A DNA stretch of 64,000 bases from a virus (Duplodnaviria > Heunggongvirae > Uroviricota > Caudoviricetes), in IMG/VR virus record IMGVR_UViG_3300045538_000409. The stretch is one strand, 5' to 3'. Each line of letters opens with the position of its first letter. Within the stretch, counting starts at the first letter, position 1. Position numbers and translations under genes: made by a program. Shown here in pieces: positions 8,442-46,908 of the stretch. Below the pieces are notes generated by a model that worked only from the letters and a program-made list of their open reading frames with translations, had not been told where the DNA came from and ran no database searches.

Positions 8442-8463
8442 TTTTTAATATTAAAATAAATTT

Positions 8464-20032: not shown

Positions 20033-20403
20033 GGGGCTGACATTGGAAATTGATTATTAAACGATTCTAATTGTAAGGAAGTAGTGTTAAATGGAAACAC
20101 TTTAATAACCTATTAATACTTTTAAATGACAACGAATTTAACGTTGAACAAAACTTCCTTGAAACTTCAATAGTTGAAGTATATAAAGGAGAGGTAGCAT
20201 TAGCCTAATTCGAGTAATGTATTTGTGGTAAAACCACACAACACACCAATACTAAGGTGTTAAAATAGTAAATATGGATTACTACACACCATATAAACAA
20301 CGTAGTAGATTTTTTGGAAAGTTTTTTATAAAAACTATGACCTAAACTTCTAGAAATCATTTAAAACTTTAATAAGATTTGAGTTCGAATCTCAACAGCT
20401 CCA
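20033..20403 (+). ncRNA. ssrA: tmRNA (ssrA), one-piece, CCA not encoded
   Basis: 5' end GGGGCUGACAUUGG and 3' end GAUUUGAG-UUCGAAU-CUCAA-CAGCUCC-A. The acceptor pair GGGGCUG/CAGCUCC is identical to E. coli ssrA, and the T-arm is canonical. A promoter (TTGACA 19970 plus TATATATTTG 19991) lies upstream. A candidate tag ORF starts at ~20127 and ends ...GEVALA-UAA at 20207-20209. Confidence 0.75.
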
Positions 20404-20435
20404 CGAATATTACTTTTTATCATTTTATGTAAAAA

Positions 20436-20624
20436 ATGAACTATAATAATAAATTTAAAACAAATAAAATGAAAAACATTTTTATTTTAATTTTTGCAGT
20501 AATTTTGGTTTCATGCTCTTCAAAAAGTGGTGCAACTGAAGAAAACGTAACTAATGACAGTACAGTTGTGTCAGTTGATACAACAGTAGTTACACCTGCA
20601 GAAGTTGATTCTACCGTTAAATAG
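20436..20624 (+). CDS. small lipoprotein
   Basis: Lipobox ILVSCSS. The start may be the internal MKNIF. Confidence 0.4.
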   Translation: MNYNNKFKTNKMKNIFILIFAVILVSCSSKSGATEENVTNDSTVVSVDTTVVTPAEVDSTVK

Positions 20625-20648
20625 TAACATAATATTATTTATCATTTA

Positions 20649-20676
20649 AAACCCACAAATTTGTGGGTTTTTTTAT
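20649..20676 (+). terminator. intrinsic terminator
   Basis: AACCCACAAA-TTTGTGGGTTTTTTT. Confidence 0.75.
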
Positions 20677-20704
20677 TAAAATACTTTACATTTTAATTTT
20701 TTAT

Positions 20705-21861: not shown

Positions 21862-22056
21862 ATGATAAAAGTAAAGATTATAGATGGTAATATTGAAAAA
21901 GCTTTAAAAACGTTAAAAAGAAAAGTTTCAAATATCAAACAAAATAGAGAACTTTCTGAACGAAAAGAATATATAAAACCAACAACTAAAAATAGAGAAT
22001 TAAAGAAAAAAGCTATTTACTGTGAACGAAAAATAAGAGATAATGATGAAAATTAG
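21862..22056 (+). CDS. rpsU: 30S ribosomal protein S21
   Basis: MIKVKIIDGNIEKALKTLKRKVSNIKQNRELSERKEYIKPTTKNRELKKKA, compared with bacterial S21 ...[23 protein letters not shown]. Confidence 0.75.
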   Translation: MIKVKIIDGNIEKALKTLKRKVSNIKQNRELSERKEYIKPTTKNRELKKKAIYCERKIRDNDEN

Positions 22057-22427: not shown

Positions 22428-22515
22428 CGGCGAGATAGTGTAATTGGTAACATGCTACACTCATAAGCTAGAGAAGTGGTAACATCATGTTGTTGGTTCG
22501 ATTCCAACCTTCGCA
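22428..22515 (+). tRNA. aberrant type-II tRNA-like element (CAU-like anticodon loop, long extra arm)
   Basis: Canonical T-arm GTTGG-TTCGATT-CCAAC and D-arm GTGT-AATTGGTA-ACAT. The acceptor stem pairs only at positions 2-6 (GGCGAGA/CTTCGCA), and the anticodon stem is 3 bp with loop CTCATAA. A terminator follows at 22522. Confidence 0.35.
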
Positions 22516-22521
22516 CAATTA

Positions 22522-23263: not shown

Positions 23264-23319
23264 CTCAAGTGTTTTTTTTTAATAAATATTTTATATATTT
23301 ATACTAAAAGATTTGTATT

Positions 23320-23781
23320 ATGAAAGCAATTGAATTAATAAAAAAAGAATTAGGTGATGCTAAACTACCACCAAACGCTAATACAATATTTACTATAATT
23401 GAAAATATTGGTAAGATAAGGTTTAACATGGAAAAGTTACTAGTTAAACTTAGTTATGAAAACATTGGTAATATAATATTAGGTGATATTAATTTAAATG
23501 ATTATGTGAGAATAAATCACGAACTTAGCAAGAAATTAACAAGGGAATATGATTCACTTAGAAGTGAAATGAATAAAGTTGAAGTGAATTATGATGAATA
23601 TGAGGTTTTTTACGATGTCATTGATAATAATTTTTACCCGATAACTGAAGAAGAGATTTCTGACATGATAGATTCAATAGTAAGTGTATTTTCTGATATA
23701 ATAGAGGGTGGTGGTGATAAGGTTTTAAGGGATGCAAACCAAAGTACAATTATTAATGAGTTCAACAGATACAAACGATGA
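23320..23781 (+). CDS. hypothetical protein
   Basis: 153-aa ORF. Confidence 0.45.
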   Translation: MKAIELIKKELGDAKLPPNANTIFTIIENIGKIRFNMEKLLVKLSYENIGNIILGDINLNDYVRINHELSKKLTREYDSLRSEMNKVEVNYDEYEVFYDVIDNNFYPITEEEISDMIDSIVSVFSDIIEGGGDKVLRDANQSTIINEFNRYKR

Positions 23782-24308
23782 AAGAAATAATTAAAAAAAT
23801 AATAAGAGAAGGTCTAGAAGATAAGATTACAAAGATTTCTATATTTGATTTTGATGGTACACTTATGGCGACCCCAGAACCAGAAACTGGTATGAAGATA
23901 TATAAGGAAAAGACTGGTAAGGATTGGCCATTCCAAGGTTGGTGGGGTAGAAATGAGTCATTAGACATGGATGTATTTGATATAAAACCTATTCCATCAG
24001 TGATTTCCGATTATAACAAAGAAAGAGTTAAACCAAATACTCGTGTAATTATGATGACTGGTAGAATACCAAAAAATGCTGAATTTGTTGAAAAAATATT
24101 AAATAAGTACAACATTACTTTTGATGAATATATTTATAAGAAAGCATCCGACACTCTTTTATTTAAAATAAGTAAATTGGAAGAAATGTTAAGATGTTAC
24201 TCAAATTTAAAAGAAATTTCAATGTGGGAAGATAGAATTGAACACGTTAAAGCTTTTACAGAATGGGGCTTAAATAAAGATATTAAAATGGTGGTAAACC
24301 AAGTATGA
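23778..24308 (+). CDS. HAD-superfamily phosphatase with CTS-like N-terminus (MKEIIKKIIREGL)
   Basis: HAD motif I at ISIFDFDGTLM. N-terminus shares the MKxLIKKLLRE motif. Confidence 0.6.
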   Translation: MKEIIKKIIREGLEDKITKISIFDFDGTLMATPEPETGMKIYKEKTGKDWPFQGWWGRNESLDMDVFDIKPIPSVISDYNKERVKPNTRVIMMTGRIPKNAEFVEKILNKYNITFDEYIYKKASDTLLFKISKLEEMLRCYSNLKEISMWEDRIEHVKAFTEWGLNKDIKMVVNQV

Positions 24309-26200
24309 AAAATTTAATAAAAAGATTATTAAGAGAAGGATTAATATTAAAAGAAAATAAGTTATACCCTGACAATATCATAACTGCAGCAACAAATCGT
24401 ATTGGTGATAAGTCTGATGATACAATTAATAAGTTAGCCATTGCTGGTTTATACAGGACAGTATTTGGCGATGTGCAACAACTTAAATCTAAAGAACAAC
24501 TAGACACAGTATTTAATGATTGGTATGATAATACAATTGAAAATCTAATCAAAACACCTTCATTTATTGATAATAAGCCACTTGCAACCAAGTATCTTGA
24601 TGCTTACATTAAAAACATTAAGTCGTTAGGTAATAATGCCAAACCATTCTCGTTTAAAAAGGTTGAACAAGGTCTTGTTGACGTGGTCAATAACAACCGT
24701 TGGATTGAGGATACGAGTATTAAACAAGGTCATAGCATCCATAATCCAAAGTCAGAAGATGTGGTTTATGAGGATGATAATATCATCATACTTGATACAA
24801 ACACAAAGGCTAAGTGTGTAATGTATGGTCAAGGTGAATCATGGTGCATAACCAAACCTGAACTTAACTACTATAATACATATAGGATTAAGTATGGCGC
24901 AACACCATACTTTGTGTTACAAAAGAATGAACCACATCCTGAGCATAAATTGGTTATTATGCATTACAAACATGGTTATGCGATTGCAGACCAAACTAAT
25001 AGTGGTAATAGGTCTGGTGGTAATCAATACTCAAATGGCCCATGGAGTGATATTGAAAGAGAAATACCTAACTTAAGGGGTTTGGAGAAATATTTCCCAT
25101 ATAGAGAAATAAGTAATGATGAAATTAAATATGATGAAATAGTTAAAAAAACTAAGGGTTATCAAGGTGATAATCTACAAGGTTATATCGATAATGTAAT
25201 AAAAGGTCTTGTTATTAATGGCAGTCAAGTTGAAGCCGTTGACTTCATAAGGGATTATGCTTCTGAGGGTAATAAAATAACAGATGGACAACTCAAATCA
25301 CTTAGACCAGAGGTAATAGATTCATTAATAGAAACAGGTTATTTCTTAAACTATCTTGGTCAAGAACAAATTGAATTATTATCGGACAAACAACGATTAA
25401 GAGTTGTTAGACTTAAGATGCAGAATAATAAAACTTTAAATTATGGTGAACTTAGCAGATTACCTAAAGAAGAGTGGTTTAACGCATTTAAGTTTTTAAG
25501 TATAAATTCTATAGCTTATTTTTTTGGTGATTATGAAGGAGACATTGATAAAATAGTAACAACATATCCTGATAAAATTAATAAATTTTTGGAAACTTTA
25601 TCAGAAGATTATGCTTGGAAGTTAATATATGTTTTAAGAAAATCGAAAACTCCACAAAACATATTTAAAATATTAGATAATAAAAGTAAAGAATATTTAA
25701 GTAATCTTACTGAAACCCAATTAAAGGACCTATTAATATTTAGTTATAATCCTAGTGAAATTTTTAAATTTTTAGGTAAAAACGGTCAAGAATTTATAAG
25801 TTCTTTTAATCTTAATAAAATAACTAAAGTATTAACCTTTAGCTCAAACCCAGAAAATCTATTACAAACATTTGGTGATGTTGGTAATAACTATATATCT
25901 AATTTATCAACATATGACATAGACGAAATGTTAAAGTTCGGTTTTAATCCCGAAGGTGTTTTTAATGTTATTAAGAATAGTAAAGCGTTTCAAATATATT
26001 TAAAAGATTTTGATATATATAATTTAATTAGTTTTTTATCTTTTAGCGATAACACCGAAAAGGTATTAAATTTACTAGGTGAAAAAACTAAGGAATATTT
26101 AAAAGATTTAACGGTAAATCATATAAAACAAATATTAAAAAGTTCGGATAAACCAGATTTAGTTAAAGATTTATTACGAAAATATGGTCATAAGATATAA
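24305..26200 (+). CDS. hypothetical 631-aa protein with CTS-like N-terminus (MKNLIKRLLREGL) and C-terminal ~37-aa internal repeats
   Basis: Its first 38 nt are identical to the start of gene 26221. The C-terminal region contains repeated LSNLTETQLKDLL / FSxNPxxxxxxLG units. Confidence 0.55.
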   Translation: MKNLIKRLLREGLILKENKLYPDNIITAATNRIGDKSDDTINKLAIAGLYRTVFGDVQQLKSKEQLDTVFNDWYDNTIENLIKTPSFIDNKPLATKYLDAYIKNIKSLGNNAKPFSFKKVEQGLVDVVNNNRWIEDTSIKQGHSIHNPKSEDVVYEDDNIIILDTNTKAKCVMYGQGESWCITKPELNYYNTYRIKYGATPYFVLQKNEPHPEHKLVIMHYKHGYAIADQTNSGNRSGGNQYSNGPWSDIEREIPNLRGLEKYFPYREISNDEIKYDEIVKKTKGYQGDNLQGYIDNVIKGLVINGSQVEAVDFIRDYASEGNKITDGQLKSLRPEVIDSLIETGYFLNYLGQEQIELLSDKQRLRVVRLKMQNNKTLNYGELSRLPKEEWFNAFKFLSINSIAYFFGDYEGDIDKIVTTYPDKINKFLETLSEDYAWKLIYVLRKSKTPQNIFKILDNKSKEYLSNLTETQLKDLLIFSYNPSEIFKFLGKNGQEFISSFNLNKITKVLTFSSNPENLLQTFGDVGNNYISNLSTYDIDEMLKFGFNPEGVFNVIKNSKAFQIYLKDFDIYNLISFLSFSDNTEKVLNLLGEKTKEYLKDLTVNHIKQILKSSDKPDLVKDLLRKYGHKI

Positions 26201-26220
26201 TCTAAGATATTTATAGATGT

Positions 26221-27018
26221 ATGAAAAATTTAATAAAAAGATTATTAAGAGAAGGATTGGAAGAAGTTAAATTATTTGAAACTCTTTTAGGTGAAGTTAC
26301 AAGCAAATTAGACTTCTCATCATTTAAGATGAACGACACACTTAACCCTGAGGTATGGGTTGATGAAAATACTATTGACCCAGAGATACAAAAAAATCTT
26401 TTAAAAATTGCTAAGGATTATTACAGTGAATTAAAATTAGATATTCCTATATTAGATATTACACTTACAGGTTCATTAGCCAATTATAATTGGTCAAAGT
26501 ATTCTGATATTGATTTACATATTATATTTGATGCAAATGAATTAGGTGAGGATAAGGATATGATTAAGGATTTATTGGATATTAAGACTAGAGCATGGAA
26601 CCTTAAACATGATATTAAGGTTAAAGGATTTGATGTGGAATTATATCTTCAACCAGAAGACCAACCACATCACTCAACTGGTGTTTATTCATTATTAAAT
26701 GATGAGTGGGTAACAGAACCAGAAAGAGTTGATGTGAATTTAGATAAAGAAACAATCACAAAAAAATATAATTCAATAATTAAATCTATTGAAGAAATTC
26801 AAAAAGATATGGATGAAGATAAGTTTGACTACGTTGTTAAACAACTAGATAAATTAAAAGAAAGAATTAAGAAGATGAGACAAAGTGGTTTGGATAGTGG
26901 TGGTGAATTTTCTAGTGAAAATATAGTATTTAAACTTCTTAGAAGAAATGATATAATGAAAAAGATTGACGATATGTTAGTGAAAGCATACGATAAATCA
27001 GTTAGCTTAGACCAATAA
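26221..27018 (+). CDS. nucleotidyltransferase-fold protein (Pol-beta superfamily) with CTS-like N-terminus
   Basis: LTGSLANYNWSKYSDIDLHIIFD matches the GS-x(9-13)-DxD minimal nucleotidyltransferase motif. N-terminus MKNLIKRLLREGL. Confidence 0.55.
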   Translation: MKNLIKRLLREGLEEVKLFETLLGEVTSKLDFSSFKMNDTLNPEVWVDENTIDPEIQKNLLKIAKDYYSELKLDIPILDITLTGSLANYNWSKYSDIDLHIIFDANELGEDKDMIKDLLDIKTRAWNLKHDIKVKGFDVELYLQPEDQPHHSTGVYSLLNDEWVTEPERVDVNLDKETITKKYNSIIKSIEEIQKDMDEDKFDYVVKQLDKLKERIKKMRQSGLDSGGEFSSENIVFKLLRRNDIMKKIDDMLVKAYDKSVSLDQ

Positions 27019-28337
27019 TGAAAGGATTAATTAAAACGCTTTTAAGGGAATATTTTCTAAATGAAAATAACGAATCAATTAATTATGAAATAGAACATTT
27101 GGGCAGCCATAATGGACAACATGATTATGAATTAGGTATGTATATTAATGGTGATATAGTTGGTTTAGCTCAATATACACTATATAATAATGAATTAACC
27201 ATTTCAGATATATTCGTTAGACCTGAAATGCGAAGAAGGGGTTATGGTTCTAGAATTATAGCATTTTTAAAAAAAGAATATCCAGAATACCAATATCAAC
27301 CTTCAATGAAAACTGATTTAGGTTCTAAATTCATACATAAAGACGTAAATCCGTATCAAGATTTAAACGAAGACACTTTTAATGTCTTAGAGTCTGAATT
27401 ACAAGAAGAAGTTACTTCTTCATTTACAGCCTATCATGGTTCACCAACTAAGATAGAAAGTTTTGTTGATGAATTTGTTGGTGGAAAAGACGCTACAGAC
27501 CAAAATGGACCTGGTATATATTTTACAACTAAGGTTGAAGAAACATATGGCTACGCTGAACGGGGTTATGTTTATCATGTTGAAATCGCTAATAGTAAAT
27601 TCTTAGATAGTATAGAACGTTCAGAAGGTTATTTAAGAAAATATAGAGGTGACGTTAAGAAACTAATTATGATGGCACCCGACTGGGAGATGGATGCTCA
27701 AAACTGGGCTGTAAACCCAAAAGAAGGACTTAATATGATGGTGGATAATTTCGTACAATACAATTCAAATGAGAAAGACGTATTCCTACAAGTTTGGATT
27801 GATGTATATAGGGGTATTGAAGTGCAGTTTGTAAGAAACATGGTCAAATTAGGATATGGTGGGTTGCTTATTAATGGTGGTTTTAATAGTGATAATGGTG
27901 GTGACCATATAGTAGTATATAACCCAGGGCTAATAACAATTAGTAAAGTAGAGTTTTTTGGTGATAAATCAATGAACGAACAAATAATATTACCTATAAT
28001 GAAAAACATGGAAAAAGCGCCAAATATGGGGAGTAAATTCGGTCAAGACGTAGAACCAAGTGGCACATATGTGTCTCATGATGATAGGAAAAATAAAACG
28101 CCAATAGATAATTATAAGTTAGGAAAAGTAACATTCAATAACCCACTTATAATAGATATAACTGATGATACAATCATTACTTATAAAAACAAATTAAGTC
28201 AACAATTTAAAGCTAAAGGTAAAAACCTTACTAATAAATTAATGGAAAAAGGTTATGATGGGTTAATTACTAGATGGCCCGATGGTAATTATAATGAACT
28301 GATATTATTCCCAAATAGTAAATATTACTTAAGTTAA
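27018..28337 (+). CDS. GNAT N-acetyltransferase domain fused to PARP/diphtheria-toxin-like (H-Y-E class) ADP-ribosyltransferase-like domain; CTS-like N-terminus
   Basis: GNAT motif A at VRPEMRRRGYGSRIIAFL. Downstream, FTAYHGSPTKIESF...GPGIYFTT parallels the PARP1 NAD-binding signature WHGSRTTNFAGIL...GKGIYFAD. N-terminus MKGLIKTLLRE. Confidence 0.55.
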   Translation: MKGLIKTLLREYFLNENNESINYEIEHLGSHNGQHDYELGMYINGDIVGLAQYTLYNNELTISDIFVRPEMRRRGYGSRIIAFLKKEYPEYQYQPSMKTDLGSKFIHKDVNPYQDLNEDTFNVLESELQEEVTSSFTAYHGSPTKIESFVDEFVGGKDATDQNGPGIYFTTKVEETYGYAERGYVYHVEIANSKFLDSIERSEGYLRKYRGDVKKLIMMAPDWEMDAQNWAVNPKEGLNMMVDNFVQYNSNEKDVFLQVWIDVYRGIEVQFVRNMVKLGYGGLLINGGFNSDNGGDHIVVYNPGLITISKVEFFGDKSMNEQIILPIMKNMEKAPNMGSKFGQDVEPSGTYVSHDDRKNKTPIDNYKLGKVTFNNPLIIDITDDTIITYKNKLSQQFKAKGKNLTNKLMEKGYDGLITRWPDGNYNELILFPNSKYYLS

Positions 28338-28374
28338 TAGTAAAGCTAATTAATTTGTATATTTAAAAACTTTT

Positions 28375-28385
28375 TACTATATTTG
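28375..28385 (+). promoter_or_regulatory. promoter motif TACTATATTTG upstream of CCA-adding enzyme gene
   Basis: 5 nt before the ATG at 28391. A second TTTGTATATTT lies at 28354. Confidence 0.4.
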
Positions 28386-28390
28386 TAATT

Positions 28391-29557
28391 ATGAAACAAA
28401 TAATTAAAAAAATGGTTAAACAAAAGTTACTTAAAGAAGAGAGGATAAAGTTAAATATACCTATTCCTGATGACATAATACAAATTAAAGATATATTCGT
28501 CAATAACGGATATAAGTTATATATTGTGGGTGGTTCTGTACGTGACTCATTACTTAACAAACCTATTAAGGATTACGATTTAGCTACTGACGCAACACCA
28601 GACCAAGTTGAAGATATAATGAATAAATCTGGTTTTAAAACACTACCAACTGGTAAAGCATTTGGGGTTATAAATGTGTTTACAGATACTAATGAATACG
28701 AAGTGGCCACGCTTAGGTCAGATGGGGAATATACAGATTCAAGGAGACCTGACTCAGTAACATTCAGCGATATAAACTCAGATGCAGCCAGAAGAGACCT
28801 GACATGTAACGCTTTATATTATGATATAGATACCAAGGAAGTCATTGACTTAGTTGGTGGTATAAATGACCTTAGAAAAGGTATAATACGAACTGTAGGT
28901 AAACCAGAAGATAGATTTAAAGAGGATAAGTTAAGAATTCTAAGAAGTATTCGTTTTGCGGGTAGATTTGGTTCAGAATTGGACCCCAACATTGATAAAG
29001 TATTAAGTAATGACAGTAGTCTTAAAGGTATATCACCTGAAAGGATTAGAGATGAGTTCTTAAAGACGATTAAAAGTGCTAAGAGCATACAACAAGTATT
29101 TTTATTAATTGATAAATATAAATTATGGAATGAAATTTTTCCAGGTATTGATATCAATAAGAAGTTTGTTGAATCCAAAGACCCAATTATTGTTATCAGT
29201 ACCCTTATATTAGGTAACGAACCATCGAACTTAAGTAAGATTTTAAATAAATTAACATATTCAATAAGTGAAAATAAAGCTATTACTTTTTTAATTTCAT
29301 TTAGTACATTTAACGATATAAACAATGTGTACAAGATGAAGAAACTATTTAACGCTTCAAATGTTACTAATGAACAATTAAGAGAATTTAATAATATTAA
29401 TAAAATCTTACCAAGTAATGTCGTTGACACATTTATTAATTTCCAACTTAGCGTTACTGGCGACCAAGTTCAAAGTGAATTAGGAATTAAACCAGGACCA
29501 GAAATGGGTAAAACTATTGAAAAAATGGAAATTGATAACTTTAATAAACTTTTATAA
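28391..29557 (+). CDS. cca: tRNA nucleotidyltransferase (CCA-adding enzyme), with N-terminal CTS-like extension
   Basis: Head-domain motifs LYIVGGSVRD, DYDLATDA, RRD(L)TCNALYYD and ATLRSDGEYTDSRRPD. N-terminus MKQIIKKMVKQKLLKE precedes the catalytic core. Confidence 0.8.
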   Translation: MKQIIKKMVKQKLLKEERIKLNIPIPDDIIQIKDIFVNNGYKLYIVGGSVRDSLLNKPIKDYDLATDATPDQVEDIMNKSGFKTLPTGKAFGVINVFTDTNEYEVATLRSDGEYTDSRRPDSVTFSDINSDAARRDLTCNALYYDIDTKEVIDLVGGINDLRKGIIRTVGKPEDRFKEDKLRILRSIRFAGRFGSELDPNIDKVLSNDSSLKGISPERIRDEFLKTIKSAKSIQQVFLLIDKYKLWNEIFPGIDINKKFVESKDPIIVISTLILGNEPSNLSKILNKLTYSISENKAITFLISFSTFNDINNVYKMKKLFNASNVTNEQLREFNNINKILPSNVVDTFINFQLSVTGDQVQSELGIKPGPEMGKTIEKMEIDNFNKLL

Positions 29558-29577
29558 TATTTATATTTAAAAAACAT

Positions 29578-30258
29578 ATGAGAAGATTTGATAAAAATTT
29601 AAACATACAAAAAGCTAACCTATTAGCCGAACAAAGATACCTTGAGTCAAAGGAATTGTTAAAGGAAGAATCAATGAATTTAATAAAAGAAGAACAATTT
29701 ACAGATTTATTCAAATTCATAGCCCAAGACCCCAAGAAAATGACACAAGGTAGTGCTTATTATGTGGCAGACCTAAATTCTTCAATGAATAAAAACATTG
29801 TTGATGATGATGGTAATAAAATACCTAATCCTATGTACGGTAAATTATATAAACACACTAGATTCTTATTTAAATGGGAAGATACCTACTTAAAAGCTAT
29901 GGACAGAGTAGACCCAGAACATATCGCTGGTAAAAGAAGTGGTAATTACGAGAAAGTACAAGGTTATGATGTATTAGAAACAGGTAAAAGCGGTCTATAT
30001 TTACCAATAATACCAACTGGTAGTGAATATCAATATGTTGTCGATAACAATGGCAATATGGAGGTAATCGACAAAGAAACTGTTAAGAAATACTTAAGAC
30101 CAATGTCACCATCAACTATTTCCGCAACAGAAGCTGGTAAACCACTATTTAGACCACTTATTATTGATAAGGTGGCTAAAATAACTGGTGGTGGTAATGT
30201 TTGGAAAAATCCTAACTTTAAAGGTGTATATATGGGACCAGGTTCAACTACTAATTAA
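29578..30258 (+). CDS. hypothetical protein
   Basis: 226-aa ORF. Confidence 0.45.
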   Translation: MRRFDKNLNIQKANLLAEQRYLESKELLKEESMNLIKEEQFTDLFKFIAQDPKKMTQGSAYYVADLNSSMNKNIVDDDGNKIPNPMYGKLYKHTRFLFKWEDTYLKAMDRVDPEHIAGKRSGNYEKVQGYDVLETGKSGLYLPIIPTGSEYQYVVDNNGNMEVIDKETVKKYLRPMSPSTISATEAGKPLFRPLIIDKVAKITGGGNVWKNPNFKGVYMGPGSTTN

Positions 30259-30521
30259 TATTAAATTATTTACCTGAATATCAACTAGTTATAAATTAAT
30301 TAAAAAATAATTTTAAAATTTACTTGTATTATTAAACTTTTTATCATATATTTGTATATATATATTAATTAAAGAAGTAACAAAAAAAATGAAAACAATT
30401 AACATACATATGATTTGGAATAGTAATTCGAGACGTATTAGTCTAGACGAATCAGGTATGTTTATTCAAAAATTCATGTAAATAATTATAACAGAATAAA
30501 AAAGAATAATAGAAAAGATAC

Positions 30522-30556
30522 AAAGCCTGAATTTATAAATTCAGGCTTTTTTTATT
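30522..30556 (+). terminator. intrinsic terminator
   Basis: AGCCTGAATTTA-TA-AATTCAGGCTTTTTTT. Confidence 0.75.
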
Positions 30557-30565
30557 TAATAAATT

Positions 30566-30754
30566 ATGGAAAATAACGAAAAGAAAATTAAAATACTTGG
30601 TACCGAAAATCTAAACGAATTAGAAAAGGGTGCAACTAATCTATACACTAAGTATAGCAAGATTGCTGAAGCATTAGGTTTGTATGGAAAAATTGGTTTT
30701 AAGAAGGAAAATGATAAAATTATCTTTTACGTAAGTAAGGATAATGGAGAGTGA
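30566..30754 (+). CDS. hypothetical small protein
   Basis: 62-aa ORF. Its stop lies inside an 8-bp closing stem of a structured 3' element. Confidence 0.4.
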   Translation: MENNEKKIKILGTENLNELEKGATNLYTKYSKIAEALGLYGKIGFKKENDKIIFYVSKDNGE

Positions 30755-30841
30755 ACTGGTCAGGGCACCAGGCTTCCCTGCTAAGGAATGCGTGCATTAT
30801 TGCATTGGCTTCGATTGCTACACTCTCCGCTTTTTTTTTTG
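30746..30841 (+). other. structured 3' element closed by 8-bp helix GGAGAGTG/CACTCTCC + U-tract
   Basis: The helix arms are at 30746-53 and 30821-28. Internal hairpins are CTGGT-CAGGGC-ACCAG and TGCA-TTAT-TGCA. The stop codon of ORF 30566..30754 lies inside the 5' arm. Confidence 0.45.
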
Positions 30842-30868
30842 TAAAATTACTAAATATTAAAAAAAAAT

Positions 30869-30879
30869 TAGTATATTTG
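30869..30879 (+). promoter_or_regulatory. promoter motif TAGTATATTTG upstream of Pnk-2H gene
   Basis: Exact recurrent 11-mer. Confidence 0.45.
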
Positions 30880-30894
30880 TAAAAAATAAAATAA

Positions 30895-31842
30895 ATGAAG
30901 AGTAATATAAGAAAAATCTTAAGGGAAAATGTTAATACTAATGTATTAGGTATAACGATTACAAGACCAAATCAAGAATTGATTGTAATGGTAGGAATTC
31001 CTGGTAGTGGAAAATCTACAAAAGCTAAAGAATTGGTTGGTAATGGTCAAATTTTTTCAACTGATGATAGAATTGAATCACAAGGTGATTATTTAGAGTT
31101 TTTTAACAAAATGATTAATTCTAAGGATTTCACACCATTAAGTAATATGCACAACTTGAATTTCACAATGGCAAAAAAAGCCATGAAGACAGGTACAACT
31201 CCAGTAATTATTGATAACACTAATTTATCACCATCTGAATCTAAGAAATATGTTGAAGAAGCCTTATTATTAGGATATGCTGATGATAATATTAAATTTA
31301 TTGAAATTGGTACTGGTGGTTTATCGGCTGAAGAATTGGCAAATAGAAACACTCATGGTGTTCCGCTGGACAAAATTCAATCAATGATTCAAAAATATAA
31401 TTCACATAAACCAATGACTCTTAATAAAGTTTTAAATTCAAAATCAATTGATAATAAAAAAACTAACTTAATTGCTAGTTTAGTATTAGATGATACATCG
31501 CACGATAAATTAATTAAACTAGTAAAGGATTACATCCCTAAAGGTTGGAAAGTTTTTGCACATCATATGACTATTAATTTTGGGAATGGGTTACCTGAAA
31601 ATCTTAAGAGTGATTTAGGTAAAGTTAAATCTATTACTGCAACTGAGATTGGCGTTTCTGATATGGCTATAGCGGTAAGGGTTGAAGGATATCATTCGGA
31701 TAACAAAATTCCTCATATTACTATAGCGGTTAATGTGGCAGAAGGTGGTCGCCCTGTAATGTCTAATAATATTACTAATTGGAGCAAATTAGAAAATAAA
31801 ATTAATCTATCTGGAGTCATTTCTGAAGAAAAATTGAATTAA
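30895..31842 (+). CDS. polynucleotide 5'-kinase (T4 Pnk-like) fused to 2H-family cyclic phosphodiesterase; CTS-like N-terminus
   Basis: P-loop IVMVGIPGSGKST. Blocks VIIDNTNLSPSE and HGVPLDKIQSMIQKY are collinear with T4 Pnk (GCPGSGKST, VIISDTNLNPERR, VPIDVLRSMYKSM). The C-terminus has two H-x-T motifs (HHMTI, HITIA), a 2H phosphoesterase signature. N-terminus MKSNIRKILRE. Confidence 0.75.
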   Translation: MKSNIRKILRENVNTNVLGITITRPNQELIVMVGIPGSGKSTKAKELVGNGQIFSTDDRIESQGDYLEFFNKMINSKDFTPLSNMHNLNFTMAKKAMKTGTTPVIIDNTNLSPSESKKYVEEALLLGYADDNIKFIEIGTGGLSAEELANRNTHGVPLDKIQSMIQKYNSHKPMTLNKVLNSKSIDNKKTNLIASLVLDDTSHDKLIKLVKDYIPKGWKVFAHHMTINFGNGLPENLKSDLGKVKSITATEIGVSDMAIAVRVEGYHSDNKIPHITIAVNVAEGGRPVMSNNITNWSKLENKINLSGVISEEKLN

Positions 31843-33911: not shown

Positions 33912-34169
33912 ATGGTAATTTTATATTTTTTAGTAACATTTGTTATATTTTTCTTCATGTATAAGAAATACTGGCCTTTAATCAATCGTAAAATGAAGAT
34001 ACATGGCTATTATAATTGGATAGATTGCTCAGAGTTTTGGATAATGATTATTATCCCATTATTTTGGGTAATTTCACTACCATTATATTTTTTATGGTTA
34101 TTTTTGGATTATATATACGAAAGATATATCGTAAATAAGGATAAAACGGGGAACGCTGAAAACCGTTAA
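33912..34169 (+). CDS. small membrane protein
   Basis: 85-aa ORF with two TM helices. Confidence 0.4.
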   Translation: MVILYFLVTFVIFFFMYKKYWPLINRKMKIHGYYNWIDCSEFWIMIIIPLFWVISLPLYFLWLFLDYIYERYIVNKDKTGNAENR

Positions 34170-34207
34170 TAGAGTAAGCAAATAGCAATTTAATTTAAAT
34201 TTTAAAA

Positions 34208-35008
34208 ATGAAAAAAGTAATTTATTTAGCAATGGCAATCTTTGGGTTATCATTGACATCATGCGAAACAGTATCTCCAGGACACAAGGGTGTGGAAATT
34301 TCTTGGGGTGGTGAGACAAATTTACAAACAACTTATAATGAAGGTATGGCAACTGGTCTACACTGGATTTGGGATGAAATGGTAGAGTACGATGTTAGAC
34401 AAAAAACGCTAGTTGAAAAGTTTGAGTTTAACGACAACAACAACATGACAACTAATGTGGAAATATCGTTAGATTATAACTTAAATCCTGATAAGGTAAC
34501 TTTGTTACATACTCAGATTAGTGATATTGAGACAAAAATCCTCAAGACACTTAAGTCAGCAGGTAAGGAAGTTGTTCCACAATATTCGGCAGTTGAATTG
34601 AATATTACTAAGAGGCAAGAAGCGGAAGATAAACTTAACGCAATCCTTGCTAGGGAATTACCAGAATTCTATGTTCAATTAGCGAGAGTTCAAATGACTG
34701 ATGTTGACATCCCACCAGCAGTAGCTAAATTAGCTGAAGAAACAGCAGTTCAACTTGGTAGAAATGAATTAGCAACTAAGAAAGAAGCTGAACAAAAGTC
34801 ATTAGCTAAGGCTAAGGTAGCAACAGCACAAGGTAATTTTGACGCTGGTATTCTAGATGCTAAGACTAAGGAGTTATTGTCTAAACCAGAATTACTTAAG
34901 TTGAAAGAATTAGAGGTTGATATGGAATACGCTAAAAAAGGTGTTTCAAAATATGGAACTAACAATGTCTTTGGTGGTAATGGTGCAACTGTCATTAAAG
35001 GTTTATAA
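34208..35008 (+). CDS. SPFH/band-7 (prohibitin/HflKC-like) domain lipoprotein
   Basis: Lipobox LSLTSC, then VSPGHKGVEISWGG...VEYDVRQKT, typical of the SPFH domain start. Confidence 0.6.
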   Translation: MKKVIYLAMAIFGLSLTSCETVSPGHKGVEISWGGETNLQTTYNEGMATGLHWIWDEMVEYDVRQKTLVEKFEFNDNNNMTTNVEISLDYNLNPDKVTLLHTQISDIETKILKTLKSAGKEVVPQYSAVELNITKRQEAEDKLNAILARELPEFYVQLARVQMTDVDIPPAVAKLAEETAVQLGRNELATKKEAEQKSLAKAKVATAQGNFDAGILDAKTKELLSKPELLKLKELEVDMEYAKKGVSKYGTNNVFGGNGATVIKGL

Positions 35009-35868
35009 TGAAAATTATTAGATATCCAGATGGTTCTTCTTACGTAAAGTTAGAAGAACCAATATCTAAAGAAATAATATTTAGATTAAATACTTACGAA
35101 GATTTGTGGCATTTAAACCAAATTGTTGATGTTTATAATTATAACAATATAGTACCTACCATAACTATACCTAATCTTATAGATGCTCAAGCTGATAGAA
35201 GGTTTAATGATAATGAAAGTAGTGGCTTGAAATTAGTATGTAAATTTTTAAACAATTTAAATGCTAATTTTAAAATATTTCATCCACATAATCCTGAAGC
35301 GGTTGAAGCTTTAATGGATAACGTTAAAATTATTGAGAATCATTCATTTATTAAAGAAGTATTATCTGAAATATATTGTGATAATAATAGTATACTTAGA
35401 GACCTTGGGTTATTTTACCATACTAAATCAGAACTTTACGATAATTTAATTTTATTTTCAAGTGATTCTGGTGGATTCAAACCTCTTATGAAACTTTGTG
35501 ATAAAATTAATTGGAAAGGTGAAACTTTTTCAGCTAGTAAATCTCGTAAATATGAAAATGGTGAAACTAAATTAATACAACAAGTTAATCGTGAAGATTT
35601 TGGTGGTAAAGACATTCTTATTATCGATGACATTTGTGTATATGGAAAAACTTTTAAAGGTTTATATAAATTACTTAAAGAACGTAATTGTGGTAAATTA
35701 TATTTAGCTGTTAGCCATTTGACTATAGAACATCACCCACAAGATAGTGTATTTGAATATTTCGATAAGGTTTTTTGTACGAATAGTAAGTATGACGAAT
35801 ATACTGCTGAAAATGAACTTAGAGAAATGTTAATACCGCAAAATTTAGAAATTATAAAATTATTTTAA
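35008..35868 (+). CDS. PRPP-synthetase-like / type I phosphoribosyltransferase-domain protein
   Basis: PRPP-binding loop DILIIDDICVYGKTF and an N-terminal Prs-like region. Start overlaps the upstream stop (ATGA). Confidence 0.5.
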   Translation: MKIIRYPDGSSYVKLEEPISKEIIFRLNTYEDLWHLNQIVDVYNYNNIVPTITIPNLIDAQADRRFNDNESSGLKLVCKFLNNLNANFKIFHPHNPEAVEALMDNVKIIENHSFIKEVLSEIYCDNNSILRDLGLFYHTKSELYDNLILFSSDSGGFKPLMKLCDKINWKGETFSASKSRKYENGETKLIQQVNREDFGGKDILIIDDICVYGKTFKGLYKLLKERNCGKLYLAVSHLTIEHHPQDSVFEYFDKVFCTNSKYDEYTAENELREMLIPQNLEIIKLF

Positions 35869-35870
35869 TT

Positions 35871-38579
35871 ATGCAAAAATTAAATCAAACGTTTAAAATT
35901 AACCCTTTGTATGAAGCAGATGGGTATAAAGTAGCTCATCATAAAATGTTAGCTCCTGGAACTACTAAATTATATGGTACTTGGATACCTAGAAGCTTAA
36001 AGTATATGCCTAGCGGTATTGATAAGATTATGTCAGCAGGACAACAATTAGTTGTTAGACATTTACATAGTACTTTTCAAGAAAATTTCTTTGATAAAGA
36101 TTCTAATGTTGCTATACAGTTTGCAAATGATATGTCAGCTTACTTAGGCATGGATTATGATGGAACACATTTTTTAGATTTGTATAAGTTAGGTTACTTA
36201 CCAATTAGAGTTAAATCTTTACCAGAAGGTATTTTCACACAACCTAATATTCCACACATGACTTTTGTTAATACTGTTGATGGTTATGCTTGGTTAACTT
36301 TATTTTTAGAGACTTATATTTCTAAATTAGCTTGGCAAATGCCTACTGTAGCTACTATAGGTCATAAGTTTAAAGAAAATGCTAAAGCATGGGTAAATTA
36401 TACTGATAAAGAAAATTTATGGTTAGCTGATTTTATGTGTCATGATTTTCATAGTAGAGGTGGAAATCCATTTACATCAATAGCTTGTGGTTTAGGGTTT
36501 TCTTTATCAAATAAAGGTAGTGATACACTTAATATTATCCCCGCTAGTAGATATTATTACGATGAAGCTGAAGATAGTATGCCTATTTTTTCAGTTAATG
36601 CTAGTGAACATTCAGTTTCTACAACTAAAATTTTTACAGTAGGTGAGCAACAAATGATAGCAGATTGGTTAAAGTTATTTCCTACTGGTATTTTAAGTGT
36701 TGTTAGCGATACTTTTTCTCTTTGGGATTGTATTGAATACTTTAAAGAGCTTAAAGATGAAATTATGGGTAGAGATGGTAAGCTAGTGTGTAGACCAGAT
36801 TGTCTAGATGATAAATCTCAAATATTAACACCTAAAGGATGGAAATATTTTAAAGATTTAACAGAAAATGATTTAGTGGCACAAGTAAAAAAAGATGGTA
36901 TTTATGAATTTGTAAAACCTTTAAAAATAATTAACGAACCTTATGAAGGTGATATGTATGAAATAAGAGATTTTCATGGAAAAATAGATTTAGTAGTTAC
37001 TCCAAATCATAGATTGGTTTCTTATAAAAATTCAGATAATTCTATCTCTATAAAAGAAGCTTCTGATTACAAACAAAATTATTGGGAATATAAAAAATTA
37101 AGAAGTCCTAAATCTCAAAGTAAAGGTAGAGAGTTAACAGCCTATGAAAGATTTTTAATTGCCTTACAGGCTGATGGTTGTATTAAATATGTAAATAAAG
37201 ATTTAAGTACAAGAATAGAATTTAACTTTAAAAAAGAAAGAAAACACGATAGATTACTAGAAATACTTAAAAATACAGATTTAGAATATAACGTTTATTT
37301 TACTAAATCAAGACAAGGTCAATCTACATTTAGTGTGTTAATACCTTATAATAGAATGGTATCTAAAACATTTGATTGGGTAGATACTTCTAATTTAGAT
37401 AGTTTGTGGGCGGAAGAATTTATAGAAGAACTAAAATATTGGGATTCTTCTATTAGAAATGATGGTAGATTTAAGTATGATACTACAATTAAAGAAAATA
37501 TTGATGTTGTAGAACTTGTAGCAATTGCTGCGGGAAAAGGTGTTTATATTTCTGAGTCAGAAGATAATAGAAAAAAACATTTTTCTAATGTATATACTGC
37601 TCATATTTTAGATAATCCTTATGTTGGTGGACAGTCTATTACTAAAAACAAAATACATTATAAAGGAACTATACATTGTGTAAAAGTACCAACAGGTATG
37701 ATTTTAGTAAAAAGAAATCAAGGTGTTTGTGTTACTGGCAATAGTGGAGACCCTGTAGATATTATTTGTGGAGTTTCAACTAAATATCGAGATTTATCAG
37801 CATACCTTCCTGAAGGAGAAGTTTTACCTGAATATTTCGAAGAAGTTTTATTAGAAGAAGTTAGGGAAGATACCCCGCATGGAAAACGTGGTGTTAGAGA
37901 ATATGAAAATGTCTATACCGTAAGAGGTAAACTGTATAAGGCTAAAATACACAACATATCTTGGAATAGACATGATAAACAATACTATTTCATCGATATG
38001 TGGGAAAAAGCAGAAATTACAATCGAAGAATTAGAATGGAAACCTTCTGATAAAGGTGTAATAGAACTTCTTTGGGATATATTTGGCGGTACTGTAAATG
38101 AAGAAGGTTATAAAGTATTAGACCCACACATTGGGGCTATTTATGGTGACAGTATTAATCTTGAAAGACAAATTCAAATCTATGAAAGACTTGAAGCTAA
38201 AGGATTTGCTGCTAGTAATATTGTTTTAGGTGTAGGTAGCTATACTATGGTTATGCTTACGAGAGATTCAGCTGGGTATGCAGCTAAAGGTAGTTGGTTT
38301 GAAGTTAAAGAGGAAACAGGTAATTTGTTATTAACCGACCCACCACAACCCGAATACAAGGTAACATCATATAACATCTACAAAGACCCAGTAACTGATG
38401 GTGGTAGTAAAAAATCACTTAAGGGTTTGATGCAAGTTAAATTAGTAGATAATGAATATGTGGTAAATCAAGAATGCACTTGGGAACAAGAAGAAGATTC
38501 TGAATTAAAAACCATCTATGAAAATGGTGTGTTTAAAAATCAAACTACTTTAAGTGAAATTAGAAGCAGAGTTAGTTAA
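35871..38579 (+). CDS. nadV: nicotinamide phosphoribosyltransferase (NAMPT/NadV) interrupted by a 314-aa LAGLIDADG intein
   Basis: N-extein NPLYEADGYKVAHHKMLAPGTTKLY matches NAMPT [24 protein letters not shown]. C-extein GAIYGDSINL...VLGVGSYTMVMLTRD matches VIQGDGVDIN...AFGSGGGLLQKLTRD. The extein junction RPD|SGDP is the conserved active-site RPDSG. Confidence 0.85.
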   Translation: MQKLNQTFKINPLYEADGYKVAHHKMLAPGTTKLYGTWIPRSLKYMPSGIDKIMSAGQQLVVRHLHSTFQENFFDKDSNVAIQFANDMSAYLGMDYDGTHFLDLYKLGYLPIRVKSLPEGIFTQPNIPHMTFVNTVDGYAWLTLFLETYISKLAWQMPTVATIGHKFKENAKAWVNYTDKENLWLADFMCHDFHSRGGNPFTSIACGLGFSLSNKGSDTLNIIPASRYYYDEAEDSMPIFSVNASEHSVSTTKIFTVGEQQMIADWLKLFPTGILSVVSDTFSLWDCIEYFKELKDEIMGRDGKLVCRPDCLDDKSQILTPKGWKYFKDLTENDLVAQVKKDGIYEFVKPLKIINEPYEGDMYEIRDFHGKIDLVVTPNHRLVSYKNSDNSISIKEASDYKQNYWEYKKLRSPKSQSKGRELTAYERFLIALQADGCIKYVNKDLSTRIEFNFKKERKHDRLLEILKNTDLEYNVYFTKSRQGQSTFSVLIPYNRMVSKTFDWVDTSNLDSLWAEEFIEELKYWDSSIRNDGRFKYDTTIKENIDVVELVAIAAGKGVYISESEDNRKKHFSNVYTAHILDNPYVGGQSITKNKIHYKGTIHCVKVPTGMILVKRNQGVCVTGNSGDPVDIICGVSTKYRDLSAYLPEGEVLPEYFEEVLLEEVREDTPHGKRGVREYENVYTVRGKLYKAKIHNISWNRHDKQYYFIDMWEKAEITIEELEWKPSDKGVIELLWDIFGGTVNEEGYKVLDPHIGAIYGDSINLERQIQIYERLEAKGFAASNIVLGVGSYTMVMLTRDSAGYAAKGSWFEVKEETGNLLLTDPPQPEYKVTSYNIYKDPVTDGGSKKSLKGLMQVKLVDNEYVVNQECTWEQEEDSELKTIYENGVFKNQTTLSEIRSRVS
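36801..37742 (+). mobile_element. intein with LAGLIDADG homing-endonuclease domain inserted in nadV
   Basis: Begins with Cys1 (CLDDKSQ), has block B TPNH, LAGLIDADG-like LIALQADGC, and ends ...VCVTGN followed by Ser+1. Removing it restores the contiguous NAMPT motif RPD-SGDP. Confidence 0.75.
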
Positions 38580-38979: not shown

Positions 38980-40095
38980 ATGGAACTAAACATCGTTAAA
39001 CATATAAAAAAATATGGTCTAGAAAAGGCCATTATTGATTTTGATTTAATATGCAAGGAGAATGGCAATCTTATATTACTTAAATACAATCAAATATCCT
39101 CTCCAATGGACAAAATAGAGGTTCAAGAATCTAGAGGTTTAATATTAGAAAAAGGTACATATAAGGTTATTTCAATGGCCTTTATGAAATTTTTCAATCA
39201 TGGTGAAACTAACGCAGCAAATATTGACTGGGACTCAGCGCATGTTTTAGATAAATTAGATGGGTCGCTACTTTCTTTATATCATTATAATGACACTTGG
39301 AATGTTTGTACAACAGGAACCATTAATGGTGAAGGTGAAGTTAATAATAAATATGGAACTACATTTAGAGATTTGTTTTGGGGTACAATAAATAGTAAAT
39401 ATAATTTCAATATTAATAAATTAAATAGTGACTATATATATGCTTTTGAATTAACGACACCTTATAATATTGTTGTTAAACCACATAGTGAATCATCCGC
39501 AACACTTCTTACAATTAGAAATAGAGAAAATCTTAAAGAAATACCTTATAATGAGTTAATTCCAGTTGCCAATGAATTAGGTGTACCTTTAGTTAAAAGG
39601 TATGATTTTAACATTAAAAATGTTGATGTTTTAATTAAGACTTTTGAAAATATGCCATGGTCAGAGGAAGGTTATATTGTTTTAGATGGTAACTTTAGTA
39701 GAATTAAGATAAAAAATCCAGCATATGTTGCGGTTCATTTATTAAAAAATAGAACATCAGAACATTCAATAATGGAAATTGTTAAGTCTAATGAAATTGA
39801 AGAGTTTGCATCAACATTTATAGAGAGAAGAGAAGAGATTTATAATCTTCATAAAAACTATAATGAATTAATTAATAAATTAGAAAATATATGGAAATTG
39901 CTTGAACCATTAAAACCAAAAGACATATCTCCAGAAGAAAAAAAGAGGTATGCTATGGAAGTCTTTAGAGTATGTGAAGAAAATGATATTAAGATGTTTA
40001 CAGGACTTTATTTTGGTTTAAACGATGGTAAAATTGAATCTATTGGTGAATATATGATGAATTATGATAATAAAAGATTATATCAAATTTTATGA
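38980..40095 (+). CDS. ATP-dependent RNA ligase (Rnl family)
   Basis: Nucleotidyltransferase motif I KLDGS, motif IV EGYIVLDG and motif V RIKIKNPAY. Confidence 0.75.
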   Translation: MELNIVKHIKKYGLEKAIIDFDLICKENGNLILLKYNQISSPMDKIEVQESRGLILEKGTYKVISMAFMKFFNHGETNAANIDWDSAHVLDKLDGSLLSLYHYNDTWNVCTTGTINGEGEVNNKYGTTFRDLFWGTINSKYNFNINKLNSDYIYAFELTTPYNIVVKPHSESSATLLTIRNRENLKEIPYNELIPVANELGVPLVKRYDFNIKNVDVLIKTFENMPWSEEGYIVLDGNFSRIKIKNPAYVAVHLLKNRTSEHSIMEIVKSNEIEEFASTFIERREEIYNLHKNYNELINKLENIWKLLEPLKPKDISPEEKKRYAMEVFRVCEENDIKMFTGLYFGLNDGKIESIGEYMMNYDNKRLYQIL

Positions 40096-41652: not shown

Positions 41653-41690
41653 TCTTTTTATTTATAAATATTTGTTTTTTGTAATAAAAT

Positions 41691-46627: not shown

Positions 46628-46701
46628 GGTTGGATGTCCGAGCGGTTAAGGTAGGTATTTGCAAAGTATCTTTTTCGGGGGTTCGAATCCCTCTCCAACC
46701 T
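46628..46701 (+). tRNA. tRNA-Cys (anticodon GCA)
   Basis: Acceptor GGTTGGA/TCCAACC is perfect. Anticodon stem GGTAT/GTATC with loop TTGCAAA. T-arm GGGGG-TTCGAAT-CCCTC. D-loop AGCGGTTA as in bacterial tRNA-Cys, but the D-stem is weak. Confidence 0.6.
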
Positions 46702-46836
46702 CAATATAAAATAAAAATGGAACCAAAAGATATTAGAGAAAGAATAATTAAAGAATGGTTAGAAAATGAAATAATTAATATAGATGATATTATTATTGAT
46801 GAAATTCAACCCTTCACTAAGTGAAAAAATAAATAT

Positions 46837-46908
46837 GGTGGTAGCCCAACAGGTAGAGGTATCAAGCTTAAACCTTGTACAGTGCGGGTTCGAATCCCGC
46901 TCACCACA
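46837..46908 (+). tRNA. tRNA-like element / possible pseudo-tRNA (anticodon undetermined)
   Basis: Perfect T-arm GCGGG-TTCGAAT-CCCGC and a D-loop-like AACAGGTAGA. The acceptor (TGGTGGT vs CTCACCA) and the D/anticodon stems cannot be folded canonically. Confidence 0.35.

Follow-up and report, generated by a model that had tools for sequence, protein, structure and literature searches.

A 64,000-nucleotide stretch of viral DNA assigned to the Caudoviricetes (IMG/VR record IMGVR_UViG_3300045538_000409; hereafter the window, in which genes are named by their lowest coordinate) contains a block of plus-strand genes between positions 23778 and 31842 whose functionally unrelated products begin with short shared leader peptides, and these leaders probably function as capsid-loading signals that resemble the capsid targeting sequence (CTS) of phage T4 and are removed by a prohead protease. 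Two leader classes were distinguished, class A (MKxLIKKLLRE(x)LLxE type, ~11–16 residues) and class B (a 30-residue leader of the MRRFDK..KANLLAEQRYLESKELLKE or MRRFDK..KANLLAEQRYLESKGLIKE type). The leaders are strictly N-terminal and modular, end in a cleavage motif, co-occur with one lineage of the gp21 protease and are found next to capsid genes; from these features we infer core binding, cleavage, packaging and injection, as well as a role of the cargo against host defences that target tRNA.

All open reading frames (ORFs) and N-termini listed in the initial annotation of this DNA were recovered at the positions it gave. It described seven consecutive genes sharing one N-terminal motif, and six of these do carry a class A leader (in the sequences given here a slash follows the glutamate of each candidate cleavage site, and scores are those of a position-specific scoring matrix, PSSM, trained on leaders of unrelated metagenome proteins). 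They encode a HAD phosphatase of the RNA-repair type HAD_SAK_1 (23778–24308, plus strand; MKEIIKKIIRE/G, leader 23778–23810, PSSM score 23.9; Pfam E=3e-13), a 631-aa protein with no assigned function (24305–26200, plus; MKNLIKRLLRE/GLILKE/NKLY, leader 24305–24355) that comprises an alpha-helical N-domain, a small beta domain and helical repeats at the C-terminus, a nucleotidyltransferase-fold protein (26221–27018, plus; MKNLIKRLLRE/G, leader 26221–26253, PSSM score 34.3; Pfam NTP_transf_2 E=6e-6) whose ortholog in the related locus L072 is also tagged, a GNAT domain fused to an ART-PolyVal-like ADP-ribosyltransferase (27018–28337, plus; MKGLIKTLLRE/YFLNE/, leader 27018–27065; Pfam Acetyltransf_1 E=1.4e-8, ART-PolyVal 27.5 bits and so under the 31.2 cut-off), a CCA-adding enzyme (28391–29557, plus; degenerate class A leader MKQIIKKMVKQKLLKE/E at 28391–28438; Pfam PolyA_pol E=1.4e-39) and a polynucleotide-kinase-like P-loop domain joined to a 2H phosphoesterase (30895–31842, plus; MKSNIRKILRE/N, leader 30895–30927; Pfam AAA_33 E=1.9e-11, tRNA_lig_CPD weak and below cut-off). 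The 631-aa and nucleotidyltransferase-fold proteins share the N-terminus MKNLIKRLLREGL, and the identity of their genes over the first 38 nt was as initially described. The seventh gene, 29578 (29578–30258, plus; 226 aa, unassigned fold), lacks the class A motif and has instead the different, conserved 30-residue class B leader (MRRFDKNLNIQKANLLAE/QRYLESKELLKE/E, leader 29578–29667, within the N-terminus MRRFDKNLNIQKANLLAEQRYLESKELLKE); its AlphaFold2 (AF2) model, with a predicted local distance difference test score of 85, has a helix at residues 6–35 followed by a beta-rich domain, and a PDB fold search with this model gave zero matches.

Pfam matches were significant for HAD_SAK_1, NTP_transf_2, GNAT, PolyA_pol/CCA and AAA_33, as the initial domain calls required, whereas those for ART-PolyVal and for 2H/CPD stayed below the cut-offs; the 2H call is supported by two HxT motifs (HMTI and HITI), and the ART call by the ART homologs of 27018, which are present in Rak2-like jumbo phages, with tagged orthologs and tagged solo ARTs in relatives of the window's phage. 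The HAD_SAK_1 phosphatase and the kinase-2H protein are separate genes, so that a fusion of the SAK type is absent and only kinase and 2H are joined, and among the cargo the candidate two-domain polypeptide is 27018, the remaining cargo being single-function. Outside the block, class A leaders occur on a minus-strand zincin-like protein with an HExxH (HELAH) motif (40900–41652; MKSLIKKLVRE/SLLTE/, leader 41652–41605, PSSM score 31.0), for which a PDB sequence search found nothing, and, in a loose form, on an 84-aa protein (3754–4008, plus; MKDLIKKRLNE/D, PSSM score 13.1) encoded by the first gene of a block kept across relatives. A conserved 574-aa protein (5834–7558, plus; N-terminus MNKNIIKKHLTE) has a variant leader (MNKNIIKKHLTETFLSE/D, PSSM score 16.3) of which orthologs retain ..K.[HY]L..[KR]F[VIL][NS]E, and a 599-aa protein (4010–5809, plus) may have a third leader type (MKKIKITEQQAKML..), tentatively assigned, with six non-homologous N-terminal matches; the same type is present on a member of the 631-aa family (P0033, MKKIIITENQLSLLGGSLLNE/NKLY). 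Pfam and PHROGs searches with 24305, 29578, 5834, 4010, 7560, 40900 and ten tagged proteins from elsewhere returned almost nothing. ORFs 5834 and 7560 (5834–8441) correspond to a single fused gene of ~560–720 aa in relatives (L083, L088, L028 and L042).

In a six-frame translation of the window the strict motif occurred six times, always right after an initiator methionine, and the loose motif ten times, nine of them at true N-termini. In the comparison with shuffled sequence proposed in the initial annotation, the degenerate DNA pattern gave six matches against 0.00 expected from 100 dinucleotide shuffles. With the PSSM exactly the nine N-termini of the initial annotation stood out, at 6.6 to 34.3; the next N-terminus scored −2.5, and among 16,247 internal positions the maximum was 6.8; the leaders of 30895 and 28391 are borderline on this score alone, and their orthologs have clean leaders. 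Since only 9 to 11 of the ~114 window ORFs are tagged (~8%), the leader does not reflect a generic preference at gene starts, a concern the initial annotation had itself raised. Similarity between leader genes begins at the ATG, with none upstream, and in 105 distinct leader sequences of other contigs each conserved residue is encoded by several synonymous codons (ATT 50, ATA 46 and ATC 9 at Ile5; CTT 46, TTA 27 and CTA 12 at Leu9), which shows that selection acts on the peptide and not on the DNA. A generic translation or mRNA signal was rejected on these two grounds. For the same reasons it is extremely improbable that the shared start works at the nucleic-acid level, as a recombination junction or, in a host lacking Shine–Dalgarno sequences, as an enhancer of translation initiation; although the 38 identical nucleotides of 24305 and 26221 point to recent exchange, and AAA is a common second codon in an AT-rich genome, such a feature would not account for its restriction to few ORFs or for amino-acid classes conserved out to position 16.

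In IMG/VR the degenerate DNA pattern gave at least 132 matches in at least 120 loci, nearly all at true ORF starts, the contigs among the matches listed ranging from 4 to 473 kb with 26–37% GC and one at 46%. In these listed matches and the window proteins together, class A stands on at least 53 unrelated clusters, many of the tagged proteins being small and of unassigned function. Positions that the search pattern left unconstrained are also conserved, with N, S, A or G at position 12 and a hydrophobic residue at position 13 in 89 of 97 leaders, and a second [LIVMF]xE ending is present at position 15/16 in 41 of the 97 against a background of ~2% per position (~20-fold enrichment). The 631-aa protein, with more than 139 metagenome homologs, provided 57 non-redundant class A starts that had not been selected by the pattern, and in these K6 (57/57), L8 (55/57), [LIV]9 (57/57) and E11 (56/57) are conserved, position 10 is variable (R, K, S, N or I) and position 12 is G, S, A or T in 53 of 57. 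This agrees with the [LI]-x-E ending read from the window by the initial annotation, here [LIV]-x-E followed by a small residue, and since P3 and P1 are conserved, P2 is free and P1' is small, the pattern is that of a protease site and not of a binding helix alone.

The mature domain of the 631-aa family also follows eight or more other N-termini, to which it is always joined through [LIVF]-x-E/(N/D/S)KLY (e.g. MLRLTTILDSLDTTIPQLLE/DKLY, MKLYKLYEQVLTESLISE/NSLY, MKQILFEERFAKNFKKLCGVDLLLE/NKLY and the P0033 start given above). The 89% identical homolog in relative L003 has a different, longer N-terminus (MINKKLLEELNKFRRLSGLPLLKEDYNIESHLINE/NRLY), and the same locus carries an IS605 OrfB/TnpB-like gene (Cas12f1-like_TNB) at 19520–20692. 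In the loci retrieved, six or more unrelated proteins carry class B (MRRFDKxxNIxKANLLAEQRYLESKGLIKE; examples in P0209–P0366), and a search through the full set of 1.84 billion cluster representatives placed it on 153 clusters at 50% identity, almost all matches lying at residues 1–30, with mature parts belonging to 79 families; L16-A-E18 and [LIV]28-x-E30 are conserved, and conservation drops sharply past E30 (139/145). The mature domain of 29578 in turn is preceded, depending on the phage, by a class A leader, a class B leader or one of four or more others, all ending in [LIM]-x-E-E, and orthologs of the CCA-adding enzyme are tagged in some relatives (MKQTIKQILREGIINE.. and MKTQIKQILREGL..). 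Class A and class B peptides are thus interchangeable N-terminal leader modules. A gene family keeps its tag status: every kinase-2H ortholog has a leader, as do solo 2H domains, and no leader occurs on the Rnl1 ligase, RlaP, the DUF2828 protein, ClpP or dNMP kinase. In AF2 models, leaders of both types form a lone helix that precedes the folded domain, with low confidence at residues 1–20 of the 631-aa protein.

Two capsid-independent functions of such a helix have to be weighed. The leader could dock the tagged proteins to one shared target in the cytoplasm, such as a multi-enzyme RNA-repair complex, a membrane or a replication compartment; the first 11 residues of class A form an amphipathic basic helix, the tagged genes cluster in an RNA-repair island, and in other organisms the same activities are fused in a 'Swiss army knife' protein (Pfam HAD_SAK_1 description). 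We regard this as unlikely, as docking leaves unexplained the invariant glutamate and small residue with a variable P2, the [LIV]-x-E junction common to very different leaders, the adjacency to capsid genes and the limit to one gp21 lineage, and three products of that island, the ligase, RlaP and the DUF2828 protein, never carry a leader. Met-basic-hydrophobic N-termini also resemble ClpX N-terminal signals and DnaK-binding motifs, and a recognition tag for a phage or host protease or chaperone, which would time degradation or folding, could be served by genes of the window itself: a full-length DnaJ (16566–17639) and a canonical ClpP (18833–19570; Pfam E=2.5e-62, with a ~65-aa N-terminal extension), both conserved in relatives, and an AAA+ ATPase (45581–46405). 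The junction and cleavage-site evidence counts against this tag as it does against docking, leaders unlike class A, including class B, replace class A on the same mature domain, and the tagged genes showed no contextual link to clpP, so that we hold this explanation to be highly improbable. The junctions thereby disfavour the docking helix, the Clp/DnaJ tag and the nucleic-acid feature alike.

The capsid-loading reading receives further support from the head genes of the phages that carry the leaders. With T4 queries taken from NC_000866, T4-type portal, gp21 and gp23 homologs were found in ~25 of the loci selected by their tags (Pfam Portal_T4, Peptidase_S77 and Gp23), and the columns of T4 gp21 His85 and Ser140, which we take to be the catalytic residues, are invariant in the clade homologs. 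Head genes in relatives are ordered terminase, portal, small core-like genes, gp21, scaffold and capsid protein, with gp21 at 7734–8459 and the scaffold gene at 8580–9833 in L039; tagged genes lie directly 3' of the capsid gene in L039, L115, L016, L113 and L106, and tagged orthologs of the HExxH protein 40900 sit directly downstream of it in L113, L136 and L152. The T4 propeptide site is retained in the capsid protein of relatives, which contains ..ENQASSLLTE/ATTANSSG.., with the site at residue 60, and T4 gp23 has its known maturation site ..FGSFLTE/AEIGG at residue 65. ClpP, considered as a candidate prohead protease, was rejected, the window protein being a canonical ClpP within a conserved non-structural block.

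In order to compare leader frequency independently of the tag, 80 control loci were picked by homology to the clade gp21 alone. In the 24 loci nearest to the clade gp21 (mostly 60–90% identical), 14 leaders of class A or B were counted among 288 ORFs, whilst the 56 distant T4-like loci contained one in 583 ORFs (Fisher p = 1.6e-6), and the leader therefore travels with one protease lineage. In the distant loci (L155–L210) non-homologous small proteins beside gp21 share starts of their own (MKKSELKEIIKxxVxE or MKITKxxLKxIIxEE), which suggests that shared leaders may be a general habit of phages with a T4-type head. Flavobacterium phage immuto (L126, 6269–7027) has the starts MKKSQLRQIIKEAL and MKKQILSEQFRRMQKLAGIITE, and an uncultured 635-kb huge phage (L001, LR745206 501294–532370, and L002, LR756502) has its own shared N-terminal motif, seen in LR745206 as MKYLKKFNEEL, MIIKKYIRFLES and MRLKKYNQFIKES on many neighbouring unrelated ORFs and as MILKKYKMFLES on a CCA-enzyme homolog, a counterpart of the leader system in a separate lineage.

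Proteins cut by such a protease could also enter the prohead as core or filler, or act inside the head, and then be degraded or retained, with no injected arsenal. In T4, the majority of core proteins with such sites are broken down and lost from the head (PMC9026906), and in relatives the protein after the portal has IIAE/G at residue 17 plus 8–11 further [LIVMF]xE[GSAN] sites and the scaffold protein has 8–11 such sites, a picture into which the many small tagged proteins would fit. However, the tagged proteins of the window are complete enzymes with intact catalytic motifs, the leader-type site is concentrated at the N-terminal junction (~20-fold over the rest at positions 15/16), and T4 Alt and IPI, with the same architecture, are injected and active (PMC9026906, PMC5512222). 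The intact catalytic cores in particular make the core or filler explanation an improbable one.

We therefore return to loading by a cleavable signal, and to the T4 proteins that it most resembles. The T4 CTS, found on IPI-III and in the Alt propeptide, is likewise a short N-terminal peptide on unrelated proteins; T4 combines it with a gp21-family protease and a gp22-type core, as relatives of the window's phage do with their leaders. Ten N-terminal residues of IPIII are enough to target a protein to the capsid; within the CTS, targeting is influenced by residues 4 and 7 and processing by residues 8 and 10, and a foreign protein that bears the CTS is packaged and delivered (PMC9026906). In layout, both the CTS and class A are hydrophobic near positions 4 and 7–9 (4–5 and 8–9 in class A) and close with [LI]-x-E and then a small residue, and the cargo of the window, as in the case of Alt, includes an ADP-ribosyltransferase. 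The sequences themselves differ, MKxLIKKLLRE against the MKTYQEFIAE/A with which IPII and IPIII start, and agree in no more than the initial Met-Lys, the spacing of hydrophobic residues and the final [LI]-x-E. The window clade, moreover, often has two tandem sites and several unrelated leader classes, one of them 30 aa long, and far more cargo families, including RNA-repair enzymes that in T4 are made after infection and not packaged. The closest sequence match to class A is the propeptide of T4 gp24, MAKINELLRE/S, with the same ..LLRE/S ending at the same distance from Met1, although gp24 is a shell protein and we know of no report of its propeptide as a portable targeting signal. The resemblance is too short to establish homology, and we therefore describe the leader as working like the T4 CTS and not as homologous to it.

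Two further systems are comparable in part. The phages phiKZ and SPN3US have large capsids and many ejection proteins processed after glutamate by a T4-related prohead protease (PMC5694885, PMC7411985, PMC10052503). The propeptides of their inner-body and ejection proteins are long, with no shared short tag, and the phages are unrelated to the leader clade. The cleavage motif of phiKZ-like phages is reportedly S/A/G-x-E. ART, GNAT and zincin domains are characteristic of proteins for which injection has been predicted, and the polyvalent proteins of Iyer et al. (2017), predicted to be packaged and injected, combine ART-PolyVal, GNAT and zincin-like peptidase domains (PMC5512222). In those proteins many domains are joined in one giant polypeptide, whereas here they are separate proteins (27018 having two domains), each with its own leader. 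A search of the literature available to us for a description of the leader found none, and to our knowledge neither the leader nor its multiple classes nor its RNA-repair cargo has been described.

On the model we propose, the amphipathic leader would bind the scaffolding core during prohead assembly so that the attached protein is enclosed in the capsid, and the gp21-family serine protease would then cut after the glutamate of [LIV]-x-E (E11 and/or E15–17 in class A, E18 and/or E30 in class B), freeing the mature enzyme inside the head, from which it would exit with the DNA at the next infection. The cargo predicted from the window is a kit for RNA end-healing and tRNA 3'-ends (HAD phosphatase, kinase-2H phosphoesterase, CCA-adding enzyme and nucleotidyltransferase), together with the GNAT-ART enzyme, which may modify host targets, the zincin-like protein and several proteins without assigned function. 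Every prediction of the CTS-like interpretation that could be examined in sequence came out as proposed in the initial annotation; its description of an arsenal of RNA-repair enzymes stands in so far as repair enzymes are tagged but is too narrow, given dozens of mostly uncharacterized tagged families and an island RNA ligase that is never tagged. The wider proposal, that a large clade of uncultured jumbo phages with T4-type heads loads dozens of enzymes by interchangeable leaders that all end in the prohead-protease site, and injects the tRNA-repair kit and GNAT-ART protein so as to pre-empt tRNA-cleaving and other host defences ahead of all phage gene expression, is put forward tentatively, as we give it somewhat less than an even chance. 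Different leader classes within one genome might also set different head positions or copy numbers.

The window's phage very probably belongs to this leader-using clade of jumbo phages, with a head module lying beyond the window, since 55 of the 114 window proteins were matched at ~50% identity and in synteny in jumbo contigs bearing gp23 and tagged genes. One such contig, of 205 kb, has gp23 between two tagged genes and a tagged CCA enzyme, and another is 306 kb long. Contigs of this clade of 205–362 kb include 3300034198_017033, 3300032268_000832 and 3300042502_001233, with lakes and seas among the sources. Scans of IMG/VR and JGI metagenomes with exact 41-mers yielded short fragments of near identity and not the contig from which the window derives. 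A near-identity DNA search of cultured phages with the block and tblastn searches of cultured phages with the 631-aa (24305) and 29578 proteins each gave zero matches, and the '..RMQKLAGIITE' leader, searched by tblastn in the same way, matched Flavobacterium phage immuto alone. The window has 28% GC, nearly all genes on the plus strand and 11 tRNA genes, and is phage-like. The host of the clade is probably a member of the Bacteroidetes, which fits the low GC content, the promoter motifs similar to TAnnTTTG, the lack of Shine–Dalgarno sequences and the presence of a bS21 gene; bS21-encoding jumbo phages of Bacteroidetes provide a comparable case (PMC9723584).

Promoter-like motifs give weak evidence that tagged genes are co-expressed with head genes. 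In most relatives the motif ATATTTATA directly follows a terminator and precedes the gp21 operon by ~20–30 nt; in the window it lies 5' of genes 3754, 5834, 23320 (with which the block opens), 26221, 29578 and 40900 (sites at 3723–3740, 5812–5819, 23296–23303, 26208–26215, 29558–29565 and, on the minus strand, 41663–41670). The leaders between motif and start codon are short, and a Shine–Dalgarno sequence is absent.

Several observations weigh against capsid loading and injection. The evidence from promoters is mixed for 28391 and 30895, which are preceded not by ATATTTATA but by the host-like TATATTTG (28380–28387 and 30874–30881), a motif resembling the Bacteroidetes −7 element TAnnTTTG. Both products, the kinase-2H and CCA enzymes, have obvious work in the cytoplasm, that of the CCA enzyme because none of the 11 phage tRNA genes of the window encodes a 3' CCA (ARAGORN). 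Untagged CCA orthologs begin exactly past the end of the leader (MRVKFNL.. against ..LLKEE/RIKLNIP), which bears out the initial view of the leader as an extension ahead of a complete catalytic core and, as some orthologs do without it, also means that packaging is not essential to CCA-enzyme function. The RNA ligase required to complete repair is untagged. As regards the head, a gp21-family S77 protease is present in relatives, as the initial annotation had anticipated for this genome, but a search of the 64-kb window with T4 queries found none of the portal, protease and capsid genes. Cultured phages provide few points of comparison, the nearest capsid protein, that of Flavobacterium phage immuto, being 39% identical and tblastn searches of them with the class B leader finding none. 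Lastly, CBB_455 of phage CBB, the sole ART homolog from a phage with a published virion proteome, was sought in the available data of that proteome and appeared in the annotation table only, not among the detected proteins.

Injected phage proteins are the earliest to act in an infection, and anti-defence functions are plentiful among them; they are usually found only by virion proteomics of cultured phages. If the leaders act as proposed, a cleavable peptide would mark injected cargo directly in metagenomic sequence of uncultured jumbo phages, and hundreds of clusters would become cargo candidates (in class A at least 53 families, in class B 79), most without known function. Enzymes of tRNA and RNA repair would then be delivered pre-made and not expressed after infection, changing their timing relative to defences of the anticodon-nuclease type; we know of no earlier indication of such delivery. 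For the engineering of Bacteroidetes phages the leader could, moreover, provide a packaging tag, as the T4 CTS does for T4.

Other features of the window include leaderless RNA-repair genes for a DUF2828/DUF7788 protein (13262–14698), a T4 Rnl1-type RNA ligase (38980–40095), the nucleotidyltransferase RlaP (43982–45157) and cREC_REC, a 'cyclic-phosphate processing' receiver domain (47010–47390). The 11 tRNA genes (ARAGORN) lie at 22429–22516, 46628–47937, 50597–50671 and 52977–53761. ARAGORN also called a tmRNA at 20033–20404 with the tag EVYKGEVALA, for which Rfam gave no confirming match at the gathering score, and the bS21 gene (21862–22056, plus strand; Pfam Ribosomal_S21, E=1e-10) lies amid non-structural genes. 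An Rfam DUF805b RNA motif (34145–34180; 40 bits, gathering score 35.6) is located just 5' of a Band_7/SPFH gene (34208), and an NAD-salvage pair at 35008–38579 comprises a Pribosyltran protein and a 902-aa protein of the NAPRTase/NAMPT family, in which the Pfam match is limited to residues 730–811. Over ~390 aa this 902-aa protein is 23% identical to a gp21 homolog of unusual length (L153 199–2076; also L019 and L045) whose protease halves lie ~1.1 kb apart, an arrangement that suggests an inserted element, such as a putative intein, shared by the two proteins.

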